From the UHGV virus genome UHGV-1717814: a stretch of DNA of 10,525 nucleotides, one strand, 5' to 3'. The position numbers were made by a program, and so were the translations under genes. Position 1 is the first letter of the stretch. Each line of letters begins with the position of its first letter. Below the pieces are notes generated by a model that was given only the letters and a program-made list of their open reading frames with translations, had not been told where the DNA came from and did not search any database. This DNA is from a virus. Below are positions 46 through 8,751 of the stretch, one piece after another.

Positions 46-122
46 GTGGCATTAGCTCAGTTGGACAGAGCAACCGCCTTCTAAGCGGTTGGTCGCAGGT
101 TCGAATCCTGCATGCCACGCCA
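46..122 (+). tRNA. tRNA-Arg, anticodon UCU (reads AGA)
   Basis: 77 nt. Acceptor stem GTGGCAT (46-52) pairs with ATGCCAC (112-118), discriminator G119, CCA 120-122. D-stem GCTC/GAGC, anticodon stem ACCGC/GCGGT with 7-nt loop CTTCTAA (anticodon TCT at 80-82), T-arm GCAGG-TTCGAAT-CCTGC. Fold worked out by hand, not with a tRNA scanner. Confidence 0.85.
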
Positions 123-3428: not shown

Positions 3429-4195
3429 CACTTCACCTCCTGCGGCGGTTCTGGTAGCGGCATCCAGTGGGTTACATTGCGGCTCTGCGTTTCGAAGAAC
3501 TCCTCACCATTGCGGACGACATCAAAAAATTCACCGTCTCGATATTGCGCATAAAGAACGAATGCGCTATCACATAAAATAATTACGTGCTGACCATCAT
3601 CAGGCATTCGCTCACTACAGCTTATCCAACCATCCGGAGTAACCGGATAGTTGCCATTCACAAGGTCAGCTCGAACATATAGCGTGTCATCATGGTGCTG
3701 ATTGTGGCTGCACCACGTTAATTCGCTTAACTCGCCATCTTCTGGCCATACTCCAGCCGTTTGCAGCCAGATATGGGCTGGCGCATCTTGGCAAGGTGTA
3801 TTAACTGGCAACTTGTAAGTTTGGCTTACAGGTTCGGCACCATGAAGCATGGCGGCGCGGCAGGCATTCCAGCCTGTAGCGTATGCAGCCGCTTTGCTGC
3901 TGCCTTCAACTGGCGCATCCTGCCAATACATTTCTTCCGGCACTACCTGCACCTGAGGGGTGGCGTAGAGTGGAATTCCTCCCCCTCCACCAGAAAATTC
4001 ATTGCGAGCGTTATACTCACGACCATCTGCGTCATCACGCATCCACGCCACCGGTTCTGCTTCCAGCGATGCCAGCGCGATACGAAACACATTGGCAAGC
4101 AGGCTGTCTGAAGATTGGTTATCGTGCGCCGGGTCGCTCAGGAAGCCTGTGATGAATGATTTAATCTCCGCACGTTCTTTGGTAATAGTGGTCAT
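3428..4195 (-). CDS. DUF551-like phage protein, 255 aa
   Basis: C-terminal segment WISCSERMPDDGQHVIIL...HWMPLPEPP resembles the DUF551 signature as I recall it; N-terminal part is joined by a GGGGG linker. AAGGAG 8 nt upstream of the ATG at 4193-4195. Confidence 0.7.
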   Translation of the reverse strand: MTTITKERAEIKSFITGFLSDPAHDNQSSDSLLANVFRIALASLEAEPVAWMRDDADGREYNARNEFSGGGGGIPLYATPQVQVVPEEMYWQDAPVEGSSKAAAYATGWNACRAAMLHGAEPVSQTYKLPVNTPCQDAPAHIWLQTAGVWPEDGELSELTWCSHNQHHDDTLYVRADLVNGNYPVTPDGWISCSERMPDDGQHVIILCDSAFVLYAQYRDGEFFDVVRNGEEFFETQSRNVTHWMPLPEPPQEVK

Positions 4196-4205
4196 GTGTT
4201 ACTCC

Positions 4206-4469
4206 TTAACCCGCAGTGCTTTCAACTGATGAGGGGAATAAAATCTTTTCATCAAATCCGGCATTCATATCATGGACAGCAACACACCAATCCATCGACG
4301 AACGATTATCAAGAGCCTCCATGATTTCATCCATGCGGCGCAGGTCATACAGGTAAATGCTTTTATCGCCAATGGTGTAAAAACCAATTTTTTTCGGTGA
4401 TGGGCAGCGATCAAGAACGTCCTGTAATTCGTTCAACCATGCCTGTTCTTTTTTTGTCAAAGTTGCCAT
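4206..4469 (-). CDS. Hypothetical protein, 87 aa (possibly extended to the GTG at 4544)
   Basis: ATG at 4467-4469 with TAAGGAAAA upstream; stop overlaps the DUF551-like gene's SD. The upstream extension encodes FAKSPARRK, similar to the N-terminus of the 2975-3322 ORF, so the longer form cannot be excluded. Confidence 0.55.
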   Translation of the reverse strand: MATLTKKEQAWLNELQDVLDRCPSPKKIGFYTIGDKSIYLYDLRRMDEIMEALDNRSSMDWCVAVHDMNAGFDEKILFPSSVESTAG

Positions 4470-4470
4470 A

Positions 4471-4662
4471 TCAGTTTTCCTTATTAATGCGACAGTGGTT
4501 TTTCCAGCGGTTTTGCGCCGCGCTGGGCTTTTTGCAAAAACCACAATCCATCATCCCGTAATATTTCATCAACCCCATCCGTCGGTTGCTGAGTCTCACC
4601 CACTGCCAGACGCCAGGAGCGTTTCTACGAACTAACAGAATCTTTGCTTTACGGTTTTTCAT
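4471..4662 (-). CDS. Micro-ORF, 63 aa, basic (MKNRKAK...)
   Basis: ATG at 4660-4662 overlaps the stop of the upstream micro-ORF (ATGA); its own stop is 1 nt from the next ATG. No family recognised. Confidence 0.3.
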   Translation of the reverse strand: MKNRKAKILLVRRNAPGVWQWVRLSNRRMGLMKYYGMMDCGFCKKPSAAQNRWKNHCRINKEN

Positions 4663-4835
4663 CTTACAGCGTACCCTTTCTTCCGCCTGTTCTGTGACGC
4701 AGTAGGCTTACGCTTTGCGGCAAAAGCCACCTGACCAAATGGATGGAGTACCGCTATCTTATGGTTGCTAATAACCAGCTCCACCACACGCACAGGTCGC
4801 TGTAAAAAAAGTCGTTTTGCCTTACGGTTTTTCAT
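4659..4835 (-). CDS. Micro-ORF, 58 aa, basic (MKNRKAKRLF...)
   Basis: ATGA coupling at both ends; shares a near-identical 23-nt start region with the 4471-4662 ORF. Confidence 0.25.
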   Translation of the reverse strand: MKNRKAKRLFLQRPVRVVELVISNHKIAVLHPFGQVAFAAKRKPTASQNRRKKGYAVR

Positions 4836-5008
4836 CGCTTTGCTCTCCTGCGTCTCTTTGCTGCTCGTCGTGCCGCTGCAATACCGGTATGGCGGCGCTT
4901 TGGTGCCGGGATGATGTTGTCAGCCATCAGGACATACGGCTTTGCAATTAGCGCAGAAGCCCAAAAACGAGTCGGGTACGGTAACAAGCCGATACATGCC
5001 ACACGCAT
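4832..5008 (-). CDS. Micro-ORF, 58 aa, very basic C-terminus (MRVACIGLL...RRAAKRRRRAKR)
   Basis: ATG overlaps the TAA of the Ea22-like gene (TAATG) with AGGAGG 6 nt upstream; stop overlaps the next ATG. Confidence 0.35.
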   Translation of the reverse strand: MRVACIGLLPYPTRFWASALIAKPYVLMADNIIPAPKRRHTGIAAARRAAKRRRRAKR

Positions 5009-5769
5009 TACTCACCTCCTTTGATGCGAATGCCTGCAGCGCGGATTGCAGCGATGACTTCAGAAACTTTGTATGCCATTACCGTTTGGTAATCATCGTG
5101 AAAATCTGTTCGATGAAGCATGCTGCTACGTTCCGGGAGCGATATTTCCCGAGCATCCAGTTCCTTAACGCGTTCCTCCAGTTCGTAGACCCTGCATTGT
5201 TCTCTATCATCAATCAGATATAACCCAAGACATTCGCTTTCTACCCAACCGCCAAAATCATGATCGTAACGCTCACATGAAAACTCACCGTCACCGTCCT
5301 TTGTTGGAATGGTGTAACTATCTAATGGGCCACCATATGTCGGCACATTTCCCAATGTTGGATGCTCAATCCACATGAAAAATGCACGTCCGGTTATTGG
5401 GCAAATATCTGGCCGCCATTGGTTACGAACAGCCTTGGTTTCGGATAATTCTTCAGCGTGTTGTTTTACTTCCTCAAGCTCAACTCTCAGCTTCCCTACC
5501 GTTAGCGCAATATCCTCGTTCTCCTGATCGCGGCGTTTTATGTATTGCTGGTTTCTTTCCCGTTCATCCAGAAGCGCCAAGACGGTAGCCGGATTGGCTG
5601 CGGCGATGAATTCAGCATCACGAGATTCGTTTTCACTGAACACCATAGCTATTTGCTCATGGTTTATGCCGTCAGTGGAGTAAATCTCATCGTCGAATTC
5701 AACAGCCCACTTACCTTTCGTAGCCTTCTCTGCCGCCTCACGCAGTGCCTGATAGTCAATCTTGCTCAC
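5008..5769 (-). CDS. Ead/Ea22-like protein, 253 aa
   Basis: N-terminus MSKIDYQALREAAEKATKGKW matches the recalled Ea22-like signature of lambdoid prophages. GTG start at 5767-5769 with AAGGAGG 6 nt upstream. Confidence 0.7.
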   Translation of the reverse strand: MSKIDYQALREAAEKATKGKWAVEFDDEIYSTDGINHEQIAMVFSENESRDAEFIAAANPATVLALLDERERNQQYIKRRDQENEDIALTVGKLRVELEEVKQHAEELSETKAVRNQWRPDICPITGRAFFMWIEHPTLGNVPTYGGPLDSYTIPTKDGDGEFSCERYDHDFGGWVESECLGLYLIDDREQCRVYELEERVKELDAREISLPERSSMLHRTDFHDDYQTVMAYKVSEVIAAIRAAGIRIKGGE

Positions 5770-6070
5770 TGGCAGCCTCCTTTGCCGGGATTTCTAACTT
5801 TTGAGTGGTTGTATCAAATTCAAACAACTTAACCACGTCATCAAACAGGACATAATCACCATCAGGATCTTCAGTCATATCTGCGCCACAATCCTGACCG
5901 CACGAGTCGCAACCATCCATATCAAGCTCGTATCGCTTCAGGTTTGCGATATTTGATAAATTCAGCGCCAGTACAGCCAGGTCATAAACCTCTTCGGCAG
6001 TGACATCGCTGTTCAGTCCCATTTCATGGCGATATATGATTTTTTCTACACGTTGTTTTGTGATCGTCAT
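5756..6070 (-). CDS. Hypothetical strongly acidic protein, 104 aa (24 D/E against 9 K/R by my count; Cys cluster DGCDSCGQDCGAD)
   Basis: ATG at 6068-6070 overlaps the upstream stop (ATGA). Composition counted by hand. Confidence 0.6.
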   Translation of the reverse strand: MTITKQRVEKIIYRHEMGLNSDVTAEEVYDLAVLALNLSNIANLKRYELDMDGCDSCGQDCGADMTEDPDGDYVLFDDVVKLFEFDTTTQKLEIPAKEAASEQD

Positions 6071-7153: not shown

Positions 7154-7939
7154 TTACTTGATAAATCCTGCCGCCTTTCCCCGCCTGTATTCCTCCATCA
7201 GCCACTGCGCCGGTGTTATTCCCCCAAGGGTGGCGGCGTTAGGCATGCACCCGAAACTTCGCCCAGGTGGATGGTAAACGTCTCTCCCTGTGTCCGGAGG
7301 TGTACTCATGGGCTCTGGCTTTGCCTGTATGCTGATCACCGGATCGGGTATCTGCTGTCCGGAAGCCACCTTTTTCGCCCAATCATCGAGCAGCCTGCGC
7401 GCGTGTTTCTCAACCTCAATCTCGCTAAGCTGGCGCTGATACATTGCACGGCGGGTATCACATACGACCCAGTACATAACCGGATGTCGCCACGGGAATC
7501 TTTCGGGACCACCAGGATATAAACTTTTTTCCTTGCTGTACCGGTGAAACTCCGCCATCACATCGTCAATGGTGACGCCAAGAACCATCTTGCTGTCTTT
7601 ACACCACTTGATGAATTGCCCTGGCGACGGCCAGAACGGAGACTCACTGGCGCGGGCGTGGCGCATACCAGCAGAAACCTGTTCACGGGTTCGGATCCCC
7701 CCTTCGGCAAACGCAGCAATCCACTGCTGTTTTGCAGCAACTTCCTGCTCTGGCGTCTTCAGGTTGGTTACCACTGCCGCCGGAAACAGTTGTTTCAGCT
7801 GCTTGAAAAGGGCATCAACAAGCCTCTCTGCTGACATGTTCACTACGTTGTCATTGTTGGTGTACTGATGCTCATAACCTGACATGCGAGAAAGGGCTTC
7901 TCCGTCACGGTTTTGTATCGCGGTAAAAACGTTGTTCAC
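7154..7939 (-). CDS. Replication protein P-like (DnaB helicase loader), about 261 aa
   Basis: Segment LFKQLKQLFPAA...QQWIAAFAEGGIRTREQVSAGMRHARASESPFWPSPGQFIKWCKD aligns by eye with lambda P as I recall it (...RRQWVLAFRENGITTMEQVNAGMRVARRQNRPFLPSPGQFVAWCRE). ORF track begins at the GTG at 7954; I prefer the GTG at 7937-7939, which overlaps the O-like stop (GTGA) with GGAGGA 5 nt upstream. Confidence 0.85.
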   Translation of the reverse strand: MNNVFTAIQNRDGEALSRMSGYEHQYTNNDNVVNMSAERLVDALFKQLKQLFPAAVVTNLKTPEQEVAAKQQWIAAFAEGGIRTREQVSAGMRHARASESPFWPSPGQFIKWCKDSKMVLGVTIDDVMAEFHRYSKEKSLYPGGPERFPWRHPVMYWVVCDTRRAMYQRQLSEIEVEKHARRLLDDWAKKVASGQQIPDPVISIQAKPEPMSTPPDTGRDVYHPPGRSFGCMPNAATLGGITPAQWLMEEYRRGKAAGFIK

Positions 7940-8751
7940 AAGAAATCCTCCCACGCTTCAGGGCTGTTCCAGTGCGGAACGTTGTTATCAGGTAATGTTG
8001 ATTGCTTCTGTCTGCTAATCTGCAGCCGCCTTGCCAGCTTCTGCTCCCACTGTGCCTGATGGTATGCCTTACCCTCAGCCATCCAGTAAATTCTGAACTC
8101 TGCAAGTTCCTGTGCCGTTGGCAGACTGTCCAGGTAGATCCCCTGCAATGAGCTTTTCCGAAGAAAGTCATCTGATGGCTGCCATTGTTCATGCATGACA
8201 AATTTGCCTAATTGCCCTGGCCCACCAGGAGGAACAAAGTTATTCATCACGGCGTTGTTTGCGCCTGGGTCATGATGCACAGAATCCCCGTTTTTTGTCC
8301 TGCTCTCCCTCTCTTGGTTAAATGACTGGTTATATGACTGGTTCTGGATCCCGTTTTTGGGATCATTCAACATCCCGTTTTTGGGATCATTCAACATCCC
8401 GTTTTTGGGTATATTCCCGTTTTCGGTAACATTACCGTTTTCGGGTTCATTGCCCCCCTCTCGGTTGCCTTTAATGTTCCCGTTTTTGGTTATATTAAGA
8501 GAGAAAACCCGCACTCTTTTTGTCGCTCCCTTTCTCTCCCCGGTATCTGAAATAAGCCCCATTTTCATGAGCGATATAAGTCCGGCCTGCACGGTTTTTT
8601 TATTCAGGCAAGTGTCTTTAACGAGGCGTTCTATGCTGGGGTAGCAGAGGTTATATTCATCGGCTCTGTCAGCCATCGAGAGCAGTATGAGCTTTAATGA
8701 CGAGCTACCTGGATCTGTCTCCCAGGCCCAATCTGTTGCATGTCTGCTCAT
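7936..8751 (-). CDS. Replication initiator, O-like, 271 aa, with an internal low-complexity N/G/K-rich region encoded by the origin iterons
   Basis: Sits immediately upstream of, and coupled to, the P-like gene. Contains the iteron array at 8284-8497. ATG at 8749-8751 with GGAG 9 nt upstream. Confidence 0.75.
   Translation of the reverse strand: MSRHATDWAWETDPGSSSLKLILLSMADRADEYNLCYPSIERLVKDTCLNKKTVQAGLISLMKMGLISDTGERKGATKRVRVFSLNITKNGNIKGNREGGNEPENGNVTENGNIPKNGMLNDPKNGMLNDPKNGIQNQSYNQSFNQERESRTKNGDSVHHDPGANNAVMNNFVPPGGPGQLGKFVMHEQWQPSDDFLRKSSLQGIYLDSLPTAQELAEFRIYWMAEGKAYHQAQWEQKLARRLQISRQKQSTLPDNNVPHWNSPEAWEDFL
8284..8497. repeat. Iteron array, putative replication origin inside the O-like gene
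   Basis: Two perfect 24-bp direct repeats ATCCCGTTTTTGGGATCATTCAAC (8348-8371, 8372-8395) plus at least four degenerate copies sharing CCCGTTTT(T)GG (around 8284, 8396, 8417, 8435, 8478). Confidence 0.7.

Follow-up and report, generated by a model that had tools for sequence, protein, structure and literature searches.

Three overlapping reading frames for small basic proteins in an Escherichia coli prophage: very likely genuine, linked genes

Does a chain of three very short open reading frames in a phage genome encode proteins, or is it a repeated piece of DNA that only resembles genes? The question was raised by a 10,525-nt stretch of the virus genome UHGV-1717814 (hereafter, the window), in which three minus-strand ORFs of 58, 58 and 63 aa, here called O1, O2 and O3, follow one another with their ends overlapping. 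The original prediction had described the TAATG, ATGA and ATGA overlaps, an AGGAGG ahead of the first ORF and a repeat at two of the starts, and every detail of that layout was borne out (Table 1). It had left two readings side by side: a recent local duplication of tiny early genes, or a DNA/RNA element that merely looks coding. Our analysis indicates that the region very probably consists of three genuine, translationally linked small genes in a long early operon of an E. coli prophage, with O2 and O3 as old paralogues and the repeat as the codons of their N-terminal motif.

Table 1. Positions of the genes, ribosome-binding sites and repeats of the chain in the window.
Feature	Coordinates	Strand	Description
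ead/Ea22-like gene, upstream of O1	5008..5769	-	253 aa; Pfam PF13935 (E 4e-31) and RefSeq annotation
AGGAGG, Shine-Dalgarno of O1	5015..5020	-	6 nt before the O1 ATG, within the last Ea22-like codons
O1	4832..5008	-	58 aa, PHROG 13831; variable N-terminal half, conserved Arg/Lys-rich tail PAPKRRHTGIAAARRAAKRRRRAKR
O2	4659..4835	-	58 aa, PHROG 1380 (family B), "internal" type; tail SQNRRKKGYAVR, then stop
O3	4471..4662	-	63 aa, PHROG 1380 (family B), "terminal" type; SAAQNRWKNH, then tail CRINKEN and stop
Repeat copy 1, GATGAAAAACCGTAAGGCAAAAC	4814..4836	-	Last base of the final sense codon of O1, ATGA overlap, O2 codons 1-7 (MKNRKAK)
Repeat copy 2, GATGAAAAACCGTAAAGCAAAGA	4641..4663	-	O2/O3 junction and O3 codons 1-7
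O2 cassette, 173 bp	4664..4836	-	Limits ambiguous within the repeat; 4641-4813 equally valid
TAAGGA, Shine-Dalgarno-like, for the gene 3' of O3	4478..4483	-	Within the last codons of O3; at -8
Next chain gene after O3	4206..4469	-	87 aa, PHROG 1714 (E 6.1e-51); RefSeq CDS

The arrangement of the ORFs is that of a coupled chain, in which genes are joined by stop/start overlaps or a gap of a few nt and the ribosome-binding site lies inside the upstream gene. The ATG of O1 shares bases with the TAA of the Ea22-like gene, the ATGA of O2 overlaps the stop of O1, and the ATGA of O3 overlaps the stop of O2. An AGGAG stands 9 nt 5' of the O2 start, and the Shine-Dalgarno of O3, as read from the sequence, is weak, with 11-nt spacing. 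A further link, absent from the earlier description, was observed at the other end of O3, where 1 nt separates its TGA from the ATG of the next gene (TGAtATG). In the family to which O2 and O3 belong (PHROG 1380, which we call family B), 64 of 71 unique start contexts had an ORF upstream that was open for 40 codons or more and ended between -8 and +17 nt from the start.

Translationally coupled overlapping genes with ATGA or TAATG junctions occur in many phage and bacterial operons. The genes described here share with them the 4- or 5-nt stop/start overlaps, the embedded Shine-Dalgarno sequences and the unstructured initiation regions (that of O1/O2 was less structured than 198 of 200 shuffles). 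They are unusual in that the same junction sequence recurs, and coupling is here deduced from the sequence layout. Because the stop/start overlaps chain the genes together, ribosomes ending one gene would be expected to re-initiate on the next. The ribosome-binding site of the following gene sits in the last codons of each gene, and these codons move together with that following gene.

On the minus strand, the RefSeq annotation gives the gene order as repressor/cro, replication genes, DUF1064, Ea22-like, O1-O2-O3, DUF551 and terminase, and within positions 4000-6000 of that strand no promoter-like or terminator-like sites were found. All three predicted proteins are strongly basic, with pI values of 12.0, 12.0 and 11.1 and 15-16 Lys and Arg residues against 1-2 Asp and Glu. 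In the identical RefSeq genome annotated by PGAP, O3 is WP_000797278.1, and O1 and O2 were left unannotated.

That the three frames are translated into proteins under selection is supported by the comparative alignment that had been suggested as a check: substitutions in relatives respect the reading frames, both in pN/pS and in the codon tables. Pooled pN/pS in the proposed frames was 0.43 for O1, 0.30 for O2 and 0.47 for O3, values to be read with the proviso that codons were aligned with the proposed frame as guide, which biases the most diverged family-B pairs slightly toward it. In the other frames the ratio was 0.8-1.7, the wobble-matched antisense frame excepted. Among the 86 unique genes of family B, the invariant residues N3, R4, K5, A6 and S25 are each written with 2-8 synonymous codons, as are the near-invariant N26, Q50, N51 and R52, and the switches at conserved residues include those between the AGY and TCN codons of Ser and between the CGN and AGR codons of Arg. 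Constraint in the family is concentrated at the two ends, with pN/pS of 0.28 in the N block and 0.26 in the C block (pS about 0.5), compared with 0.76 in the centre. The segments of O1 gave 0.29-0.46, and its tail, at 0.29, showed synonymous codon variation. Indels in relatives are in frame, and the O1 start is either ATG or GTG. There are exceptions to this pattern. In the widespread O1 allele P0115 (106 index blocks), a 1-nt deletion swaps out the basic tail, and the tail is therefore not essential. In one or two contigs, a family-B allele has its centre, SNRR included, read in another frame.

Ribosome profiling, the other check that had been suggested, can be read from published data for O1. 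Its allele in phage 933W is X015, which RNAseq together with RIBOseq revealed as a "novel translated gene" in E. coli O157:H7 EDL933 and which was given the labels "phage" and "real" by Neuhaus et al. (2016, PMC4765031), with a footprint RPKM of 34.8, a coverage of 84% and an RCV of 0.32. X015 has 51 aa, is about 84% identical to O1 and carries a 7-aa in-frame deletion. In that study it was handled as an isolated orphan, and the coupled chain and the family-B gene that follows went unnoticed. The MKNRKAK peptide of O2 and O3 was not found in the two EHEC RIBOseq supplements searched, and in the Sakai RIBOseq supplements neither peptide was present.

The proteins fall into two families. O1 matched phrog_13831 over its full length (E 1.1e-41, residues 1-58 on profile 1-58/58) and often stands ahead of family B, to which this small basic protein is unrelated; the possibility that it is a diverged family-B member was not supported, the profile-profile probability being 0.8%. 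O2 (E 6.5e-23, residues 1-58 on profile 1-60/62) and O3 (E 9.2e-39, residues 1-61 on profile 1-61/62) both matched phrog_1380. Members of family B have about 60 aa, a pI of 11-12 and a nearly unconstrained centre, and are marked by an invariant N-terminus (M-K-N-R-K-A-K), an R-[VIL]-S-N-R-R turn and a K-P-S-A-A-Q-N-R block. O2 and O3 each contain the corresponding patterns M(K/N)NRKA(K/R), (R/K)[VIL]SN(R/H)(R/K) and (K/R)xSAAQNR, which alignments of 20-86 members show to be conserved. Past these motifs, the tail of a family-B gene goes with its position in the chain. B genes that precede another B end in R-(K/E)-K-G-x-A-V-R and a stop in 16 of 16 unique cases (15 have QNRRKKG and one allele group RNRREKG). 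Every terminal B gene whose C-terminus is of the family type (about 80) has QNRW(K/R)N(H/Y); two divergent members lack that C-terminus. In most relatives the tail reads AAAGGAGAGTGA(T)ATG, a junction that stands before many different downstream genes.

These position-dependent tails bear on the alternative that survives best, which we consider decidedly unlikely. It proposes that the ORFs are relays that matter for being translated and not for their products, so that only the junctions (start, stop and embedded Shine-Dalgarno) are selected; ribosomes would be passed from the Ea22-like gene downstream, averting Rho-dependent polarity and feeding weak start sites. Such relays would account for conserved ends around a near-neutral centre, for tails that encode the Shine-Dalgarno of the next gene and co-vary with that gene, and for the weak, 11-nt-spaced Shine-Dalgarno of O3. 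The frameshifted alleles are also in keeping with it, in that the double-frameshift allele of family B (ERR8433104) regains its frame before the C block and the frameshifted O1 allele still stops 11 nt into the next gene. However, the conserved blocks are conserved as amino acids, with pS (0.49-0.50) as high as elsewhere and with Ser and Arg switching codon families, and the internal SNRR motif lies far from all junctions. Length and motifs are kept in unrelated contexts, namely Salmonella phage Sasha, the virulent phage Av-05, HK225 and D6. A compact fold was, moreover, predicted by AlphaFold2: the O3 model built from 26 diverse sequences had a pLDDT of 80.9, a pTM of 0.49 and an alpha-beta3-alpha order of elements (H4-12, E19-23, E28-33, E38-43 and H48-62). 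A model from 15 close relatives was all-helical and of low confidence (pLDDT 64) and was discarded.

Genuine protein-coding genes thus remain the preferred reading, and the age of the duplication can be judged from the two family-B copies. Judging by their sequences, O2 and O3 separated long ago as paralogues within PHROG 1380, a narrow phage family. The original prediction of a recent local duplication was right about the duplication, since both genes belong to phrog_1380, and wrong about its being recent, since they are identical at only 20 of 58 residues (34%) and 88 of 174 nt (51%). The resemblance lies mostly in the first eight codons (19 of 24 nt), the remainder being 46% identical (69 of 150). 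A copying of O2 from O3 within this prophage lineage, with the 23-nt identity as its remnant, would explain why the paralogues are adjacent on the same strand with a 173-bp period and why O2 is present in some close relatives and absent from others, but it is refuted by this divergence and we regard it as highly improbable. The O2 and O3 types each have their own diverged relatives in other phages (for the O2 type, HEMP4 at 64%, P0146 and P0148), O2 is 98-100% identical across dozens of unrelated contigs, and members that occur singly in distant phages conserve the start block just as well. Tandem Repeats Finder reported no array at the locus. Gene conversion between the starts of O2 and O3 was considered and found unneeded, as the starts differ at synonymous sites and single-copy relatives are equally conserved.

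What, then, is the repeat? Its two copies are 20/23 identical and 173 bp apart. A search allowing up to three mismatches found only these two sites in the window, and two matches occurred in 0 of 200 dinucleotide shuffles. The shared start consists of the codons for the family's invariant MKNRKAK motif plus the ATGA junction, very probably kept by selection on the protein and not on the DNA; it does not behave as a nucleotide element, because synonymous sites there diverge as much as elsewhere (pS 0.49). That the repeat is instead a protein-binding or recombination site in DNA, or an RNA motif, with the ORFs accidental, is the least credible of the readings: its occurrence far beyond chance and its coincidence with a recombination-generated indel would fit, but selection is purifying and frame-specific, the repeat varies among relatives at synonymous positions, ribosome footprints are reported for the O1 allele, an Rfam search of the region at E<=1 gave no match, and RNA folding was no better than in shuffles (z of +0.17 for the region and +2.1 and +0.8 for the junctions, which are unstructured). 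The earlier suggestion of an element that merely looks coding is therefore not supported; its RNA form also lacks a promoter-like or terminator-like site on the minus strand in 4000-6000.

The recombination-generated indel itself concerns one gene. In an alignment of the window with L013, L017 and 933W, O1-O3 alleles that lack O2 were set apart from the window by an exact indel of 173 bp with the repeat at its borders. Among 173 loci the architectures were A-B in 82, A-B-B in 44 and B alone in 42, counts in which some loci are the same contig fetched twice. With a copy of this short sequence on either side of O2, recombination between the repeat copies would add or remove exactly one 173-bp gene and leave the frames undisturbed, and both states are found in natural alleles. 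The recurrence of the junction sequence thus suggests that the junctions may also serve as crossover points.

The upstream mosaic boundary of the module is formed by the last ~25 nt of the Ea22-like gene (GGCATTCGCATCAAAGGAGGTGAGTAATG), which in the junction alignment are common to Ea22 variants that differ elsewhere; BLAST homology begins at window position ~5043. At the other end, homology to most relatives stops at ~4465, because the gene downstream of O3 is exchangeable. De Paepe et al. (2014, PMC3945230) have described mosaic exchange in which Rad52-like recombinases carry out relaxed homologous recombination at short, diverged stretches of homology. Similarly, the boundaries of this module lie in short conserved patches (the Ea22 end, the MKNRKAK codons and the QNR(W/R)K codons), and a direct repeat of 21-23 nt borders the O2 indel. 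Unlike in that study, which reported no recent mosaics between the lambdoid and P1-like groups, BLAST showed the module to be 97-99% identical between lambdoid prophages and P1-like phage-plasmids.

Stx phages, phiV10-like phages and P1-like plasmids carry the module 3' of Ea22-like genes. Annotated homologues of PHROG 1380 and 13831 include phiV10 gp49, gp50 and gp51, the VT2-Sakai p08 region, HK225 gp53, D6 orf101 and Sasha gp78. With these the present genes share full-length HMM matches (E 1e-23 to 1e-41), length, motifs, a position after an Ea22-like or other early gene and the ATGA overlap. They differ in nothing substantial, the window having the two-copy arrangement and the rarer terminal tail CRINKEN instead of LRTKGE. 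A GTDB scan with one genome per species returned just one contig, of 228 bp, which bears the label Acinetobacter, may be a contaminant and was no help in judging diversity. In lambda and Stx phages, variable genes are known to follow ea22 in the exo-xis (early-left) region (Donaldson 2021, PMC8614690; Wegrzyn laboratory), and in 933W and VT2-Sakai an O1-O3 pair directly follows the Ea22-like L0069. In contrast to that early-left location, the module of the window lies in the rightward operon, between replication and terminase genes. None of the characterised exo-xis proteins (Orf60a, Orf61, Orf63, Orf73, Ea8.5 and Ea22) is related to O1, O2 or O3.

The searches for function gave few leads. O1-O3 and the genes around them gave nothing meaningful when scanned against Pfam, NCBIfam and PADLOC, the only PADLOC match at E<=0.1 being an insignificant one for a 187-aa neighbour. 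A Pfam scan at E<=10 of every member of both alignments gave scattered single matches only, and when all PDB sequences were searched with profiles at E<=10, none matched. No Pfam or NCBIfam model and no solved structure turned up for either PHROG in these scans, and no sequence or fold relatives with known function were found in Pfam, NCBIfam, the PDB or structure comparisons. Literature searches by peptide, accession number and PHROG id yielded nothing relevant. The O3 model matches the alpha-beta-beta-beta-alpha topology of dsRBD-like and HicA-like proteins, but membership in either group was not supported, as neither a significant structural or sequence match nor the catalytic His of HicA was found. 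Kinship with the stationary-phase ribosome-associated protein Sra/RpsV of E. coli was likewise not supported (hhalign probability 1.2%, with only 12 columns aligned around SN-R). The QNRWKNH of family B loosely resembles the QAQWKAA of arginine-rich-motif RNA binders of the lambda N/Nun type, whose arginine-rich helix binds a boxB-type hairpin.

From charge and motif composition solely, we propose, with low confidence, that family-B proteins could bind a polyanion, likeliest RNA or DNA. Contact would be made by the basic arm at the N-terminus and the QNRWKNH helix at the C-terminus, and the proteins would be dispensable early accessory factors whose variable hairpin tunes specificity. A broader hypothesis, to which we give less credence still, is that family B represents a new class of small basic nucleic-acid-binding effectors. 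Their KNRKAK, SNRR and QNRWKNH arms might hold a common target, and the hypervariable beta-hairpin might have diversified in an arms race, for example against host RNA- or DNA-based defence or in retargeting host transcription or translation. The junction codons might double as recombination adapters for 173-bp cassettes across lambdoid, P22-like, phiV10-like and P1-like phages.

Overall, the locus is ordinary phage accessory-gene content and not a hidden DNA/RNA element. For annotation, this means that three genes can be called with confidence, two of which the NCBI pipeline skipped in the identical RefSeq genome, and that older Stx-phage records mis-call the stretch (L0068 of 933W overlaps the real O3 homologue in another frame). 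The locus also offers a clean, small example of accessory-gene shuffling, in which short conserved coding junctions permit the exact gain or loss of one gene and each ribosome-binding tail is passed on together with the gene downstream of it. Family B is a narrow family carried by medically relevant Stx prophages and by P1-like plasmids and would be of interest if its members should prove to be host-takeover or anti-defence factors.

Reading of the sequence confirmed each structural element of the original prediction, namely three overlapping minus-strand ORFs (O1, O2 and O3), an AGGAGG, a shared MKNRKAK and a 23-nt repeat. The TAA of the upstream 253-aa Ea22-like gene overlaps the O1 start codon (TAATG), with AGGAGG 6 nt before that ATG. 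O2 and O3 each start at an ATGA laid over the preceding stop, both with the N-terminus MKNRKAK, and a single base separates the O3 TGA from the ATG of the 87-aa gene. This arrangement is common among relatives, as an upstream ORF ends within −8 to +17 nt of the start in 64 of 71 unique start contexts of the O2/O3 family. A hairpin of −21.5 kcal/mol is possible at the Ea22/O1 junction (4979–5048, minus strand), with the O1 AUG paired and AAAGGA in the loop, and was not significant against shuffles (z −0.9); such a structure would make O1 initiation hinge on ribosomes completing the Ea22-like gene.

Coordinates of the chained ORFs and of the gene that follows them
Feature	Position	Strand	Length	Location
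O1	4832-5008	minus	58 aa	
O2	4659-4835	minus	58 aa	
O3	4471-4662	minus	63 aa	
87-aa gene	4206-4469		87 aa	downstream of O3

The O1 product matched PHROG 13831 (E 1.1e-41) and those of O2 and O3 matched PHROG 1380 (E 6.5e-23 and 9.2e-39; family B), with no matches for any of the three in Pfam, NCBIfam, PADLOC or PDB sequences. Both families are narrow in distribution. Among 1.84 billion cluster representatives, a profile search picked out 46 family-B clusters, a scan with one genome from each GTDB species yielded just one 228-bp contig, itself doubtful, and the named sources are nearly all Escherichia, with some Salmonella. Single-copy members are found in the unrelated phages HK225, D6, Salmonella phage Sasha and the virulent phage Av-05. 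Three chimeric database proteins (P0033, P0044 and P0156), which join a family-B N-terminal part to a downstream DUF4014-type protein, are fusions or read-through calls at that gene junction.

E. coli chromosomes, NZ_CP070152 among them, match the region at 100% identity; in that genome the prophage gene order is HTH repressor, small regulators, DnaT-like/O-like and P replication genes, DUF1064, two hypothetical genes, ead/Ea22-like, O1, O2, O3, the 87-aa gene, DUF551, and small and large terminase. PGAP annotated O3 in that genome and missed O1 and O2; the stretch concerned is 4659–5008 in the window and 5193–5539 in locus L001. The chain is internal to a long early operon, because neither a sigma-70-like promoter nor an intrinsic-terminator-like site was found on the minus strand between 4000 and 6000. 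The O-like replication initiator gene (7936–8751, minus strand), marked as frameshifted by PGAP in the identical RefSeq genome, contains 12-, 24- and 18-nt tandem repeats (8315–8451; 24-nt unit ATCCCGTTTTTGGGATCATTCAAC, 2.6 copies, 100% matches) that are probably origin iterons. A tRNA-Arg (anticodon TCT; 46–122, plus strand) lies between the large terminase/Gp49-family genes and the prophage portal region.

Together with the final ~35 nt of the upstream gene, the chain (4465–5043) behaves as a module. It matched 239 phage records and 1,738 E. coli records (1,604 of 5,426 genomes; 394 places on plasmids), and its carriers include Stx phages (933W, VT2-Sakai), in which it comes after the exo-xis region's Ea22-like gene, phiV10, TL-2011b/c, and P1-like phage-plasmids (RCS47, P1 records). 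Module sequences of lambdoid prophages and P1-like phage-plasmids are 97–99% identical (loci L012 from RCS47 and L008 from D6; matches H5–H7, P1 records); an earlier survey had found no recent mosaics between lambda-like and P1/P2/Mu groups (PMC3945230). In 933W (AF125520) the true O3 homologue (3951–3766) is unannotated and L0068 (3833–3546) runs over its end in a different frame, which makes it probable that the start of L0068 was called too far upstream.

Comparison with relatives showed that substitutions across 4471–5008 respect the reading frames. From 173 loci, 86 unique family-B genes and 45 unique O1-family genes were extracted. Pooled pN/pS in the proposed frames was 0.43 for O1, 0.30 for O2 and 0.47 for O3, against 0.8–1.7 in other frames, the sole exception being, as expected, the antisense frame with coinciding wobble positions. 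Invariant or near-invariant residues in the 86 family-B genes are written with several synonymous codons: R4 (CGT/CGC/AGA/CGA), A6 (all four GCN), S25 (AGT/AGC/TCT/TCA) and R52 (CGC/AGG/AGA/CGA/CGG). The family-B N- and C-terminal blocks have pN/pS of 0.28 and 0.26, with pS (0.49–0.50) near that of the rest of the gene, and the centre is almost neutral (0.76). Three segments of O1 gave 0.42, 0.46 and 0.29, with synonymous variation within the basic tail; indels among its relatives are in frame (7 aa in 933W, single residues elsewhere) and its start is polymorphic (ATG/GTG). Ribosome footprints have been published for the 933W allele of O1, reported as the novel translated gene X015 of EDL933 (transcript RPKM 108.8, footprint RPKM 34.8, coverage 84%, RCV 0.32; PMC4765031), and a search of two RIBOseq supplements found no experimental data on O2 or O3.

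Certain frameshifted alleles fit a secondary value of the chain in simply being translated. A widespread O1 allele (protein P0115; 106 index blocks, complete genomes among them) has a 1-nt deletion in CCCGGCACC (loci L175–L178, e.g., L176 1201–1386; window ~4905) that replaces the basic tail with the acidic HQSAAIPVLHRHDEQQRNAGEQNDEKP, and its ORF stops at a TAA within codons 4–5 of the next family-B gene. An O3 allele in one Logan contig (ERR8433104, L174 801–980; window ~4540–4617), which may be genuine or an artefact of assembly, carries −2 and −1 deletions ~75 nt apart, placing ~28 central codons, including SNRR, in another frame before the original frame returns ahead of KKPSAAQNRWKNH; a second protein cluster (P0045) has the same pattern. 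These alleles do not outweigh the amino-acid-level conservation.

The two 23-mers (4641–4663 and 4814–4836) are identical at 20 of 23 positions, with a spacing of 173 bp, and none of 200 shuffles gave a second match with ≤3 mismatches. The proposal of a recent local duplication of tiny early genes stands as to duplication, O2 and O3 both being members of PHROG 1380, and falls as to its recency. O2 and O3 are identical at 20 of 58 residues and 88 of 174 nucleotides (19 of 24 in the first eight codons, 69 of 150 in the remainder), and each type has its own diverged relatives, which makes the duplication an old one. Throughout family B, single-copy members included, MKNRKAK is invariant, and almost every change within its 21 nt is synonymous (AAA/AAG, CGT/CGC, AAC/AAT, GCA/GCT/GCC), the exceptions being K2N variants, the TTG start of Av-05 and a MATNN form. 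The repeat thus reflects the conserved N-terminal peptide together with the ATGA junction. A repeated DNA or RNA element that merely looks coding was rejected, given the mostly synonymous variation, the lack of an Rfam match in the region, whole-region folding like that of shuffles (z +0.17), and an O1/O2 junction with less structure than 198 of 200 shuffles, as would suit translation initiation there.

Architectures among the 173 loci were O1-B (82), O1-B-B (44), B alone (42) and a few others, counts that are rough, since certain contigs were included twice. Relative to the window, O1-O3 alleles (L013, L017, 933W) have a single exact 173-bp gap bounded by the repeat; recombination between the two copies therefore adds or removes O2 while leaving frames and overlaps intact. 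Further mosaic boundaries fall in short conserved patches, i.e., the last ~25 nt of otherwise differing Ea22-like genes and the codons immediately past QNRWKNH. The family-B C-terminal tail varies with the following gene. Where another family-B gene follows, 16 of 16 unique genes end in QNRRKKGYAVR-stop or a close variant, among them a phiV10 gene with an O3-like body; terminal genes with a family-type C-terminus (about 80) all end in QNRW(K/R)N(H/Y) plus a short tail. The commonest of these, LRTKGE-stop, is written AAAGGAGAGTGA(T)ATG, DNA that holds the Shine-Dalgarno sequence for at least 8 different downstream genes. In D6 (L008) and HEMP4 (L010) O1 is absent and GCATCAAAGGAGACGCAGGAGAGCAAAACGATGA precedes the family-B start, just upstream of positions 1201 and 1028, respectively; because it resembles a fusion of the terminal parts of the Ea22-like gene and O1, it suggests that O1 was lost through a deletion running from one short A/G-rich patch to a second, similar one. 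Homologous recombination by phage Rad52-like recombinases across short stretches of diverged homology is known to generate mosaics of this kind (PMC3945230), and may have acted at this locus.

An AlphaFold2 model from 26 diverse sequences (pLDDT 80.9, pTM 0.49) has a helix at 4–12, strands at 19–23, 28–33 and 38–43, and a helix at 48–62; a shallower alignment gave an all-helical model that is unreliable. The predicted alpha-beta3-alpha topology of family B recalls the dsRBD and HicA folds, but neither was matched, and Arg mostly occupies the place where the His would be. Foldseek returned nothing at E ≤ 0.001 from the PDB and BFVD, the best BFVD match being the family member from Av-05. A proposed resemblance to Sra/RpsV failed when tested. 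The O1–O3 products are strongly basic (pI 11.1–12.0). Based on their charge (15–16 K+R), conserved motifs rich in Asn, Arg, Lys and Gln, and early-operon position, one possible and quite tentative role is that of small dispensable accessory proteins binding a polyanion, probably nucleic acid. Overall, O1–O3 are typical small phage accessory genes that were already catalogued, and their junctions have a neat, cassette-like architecture.
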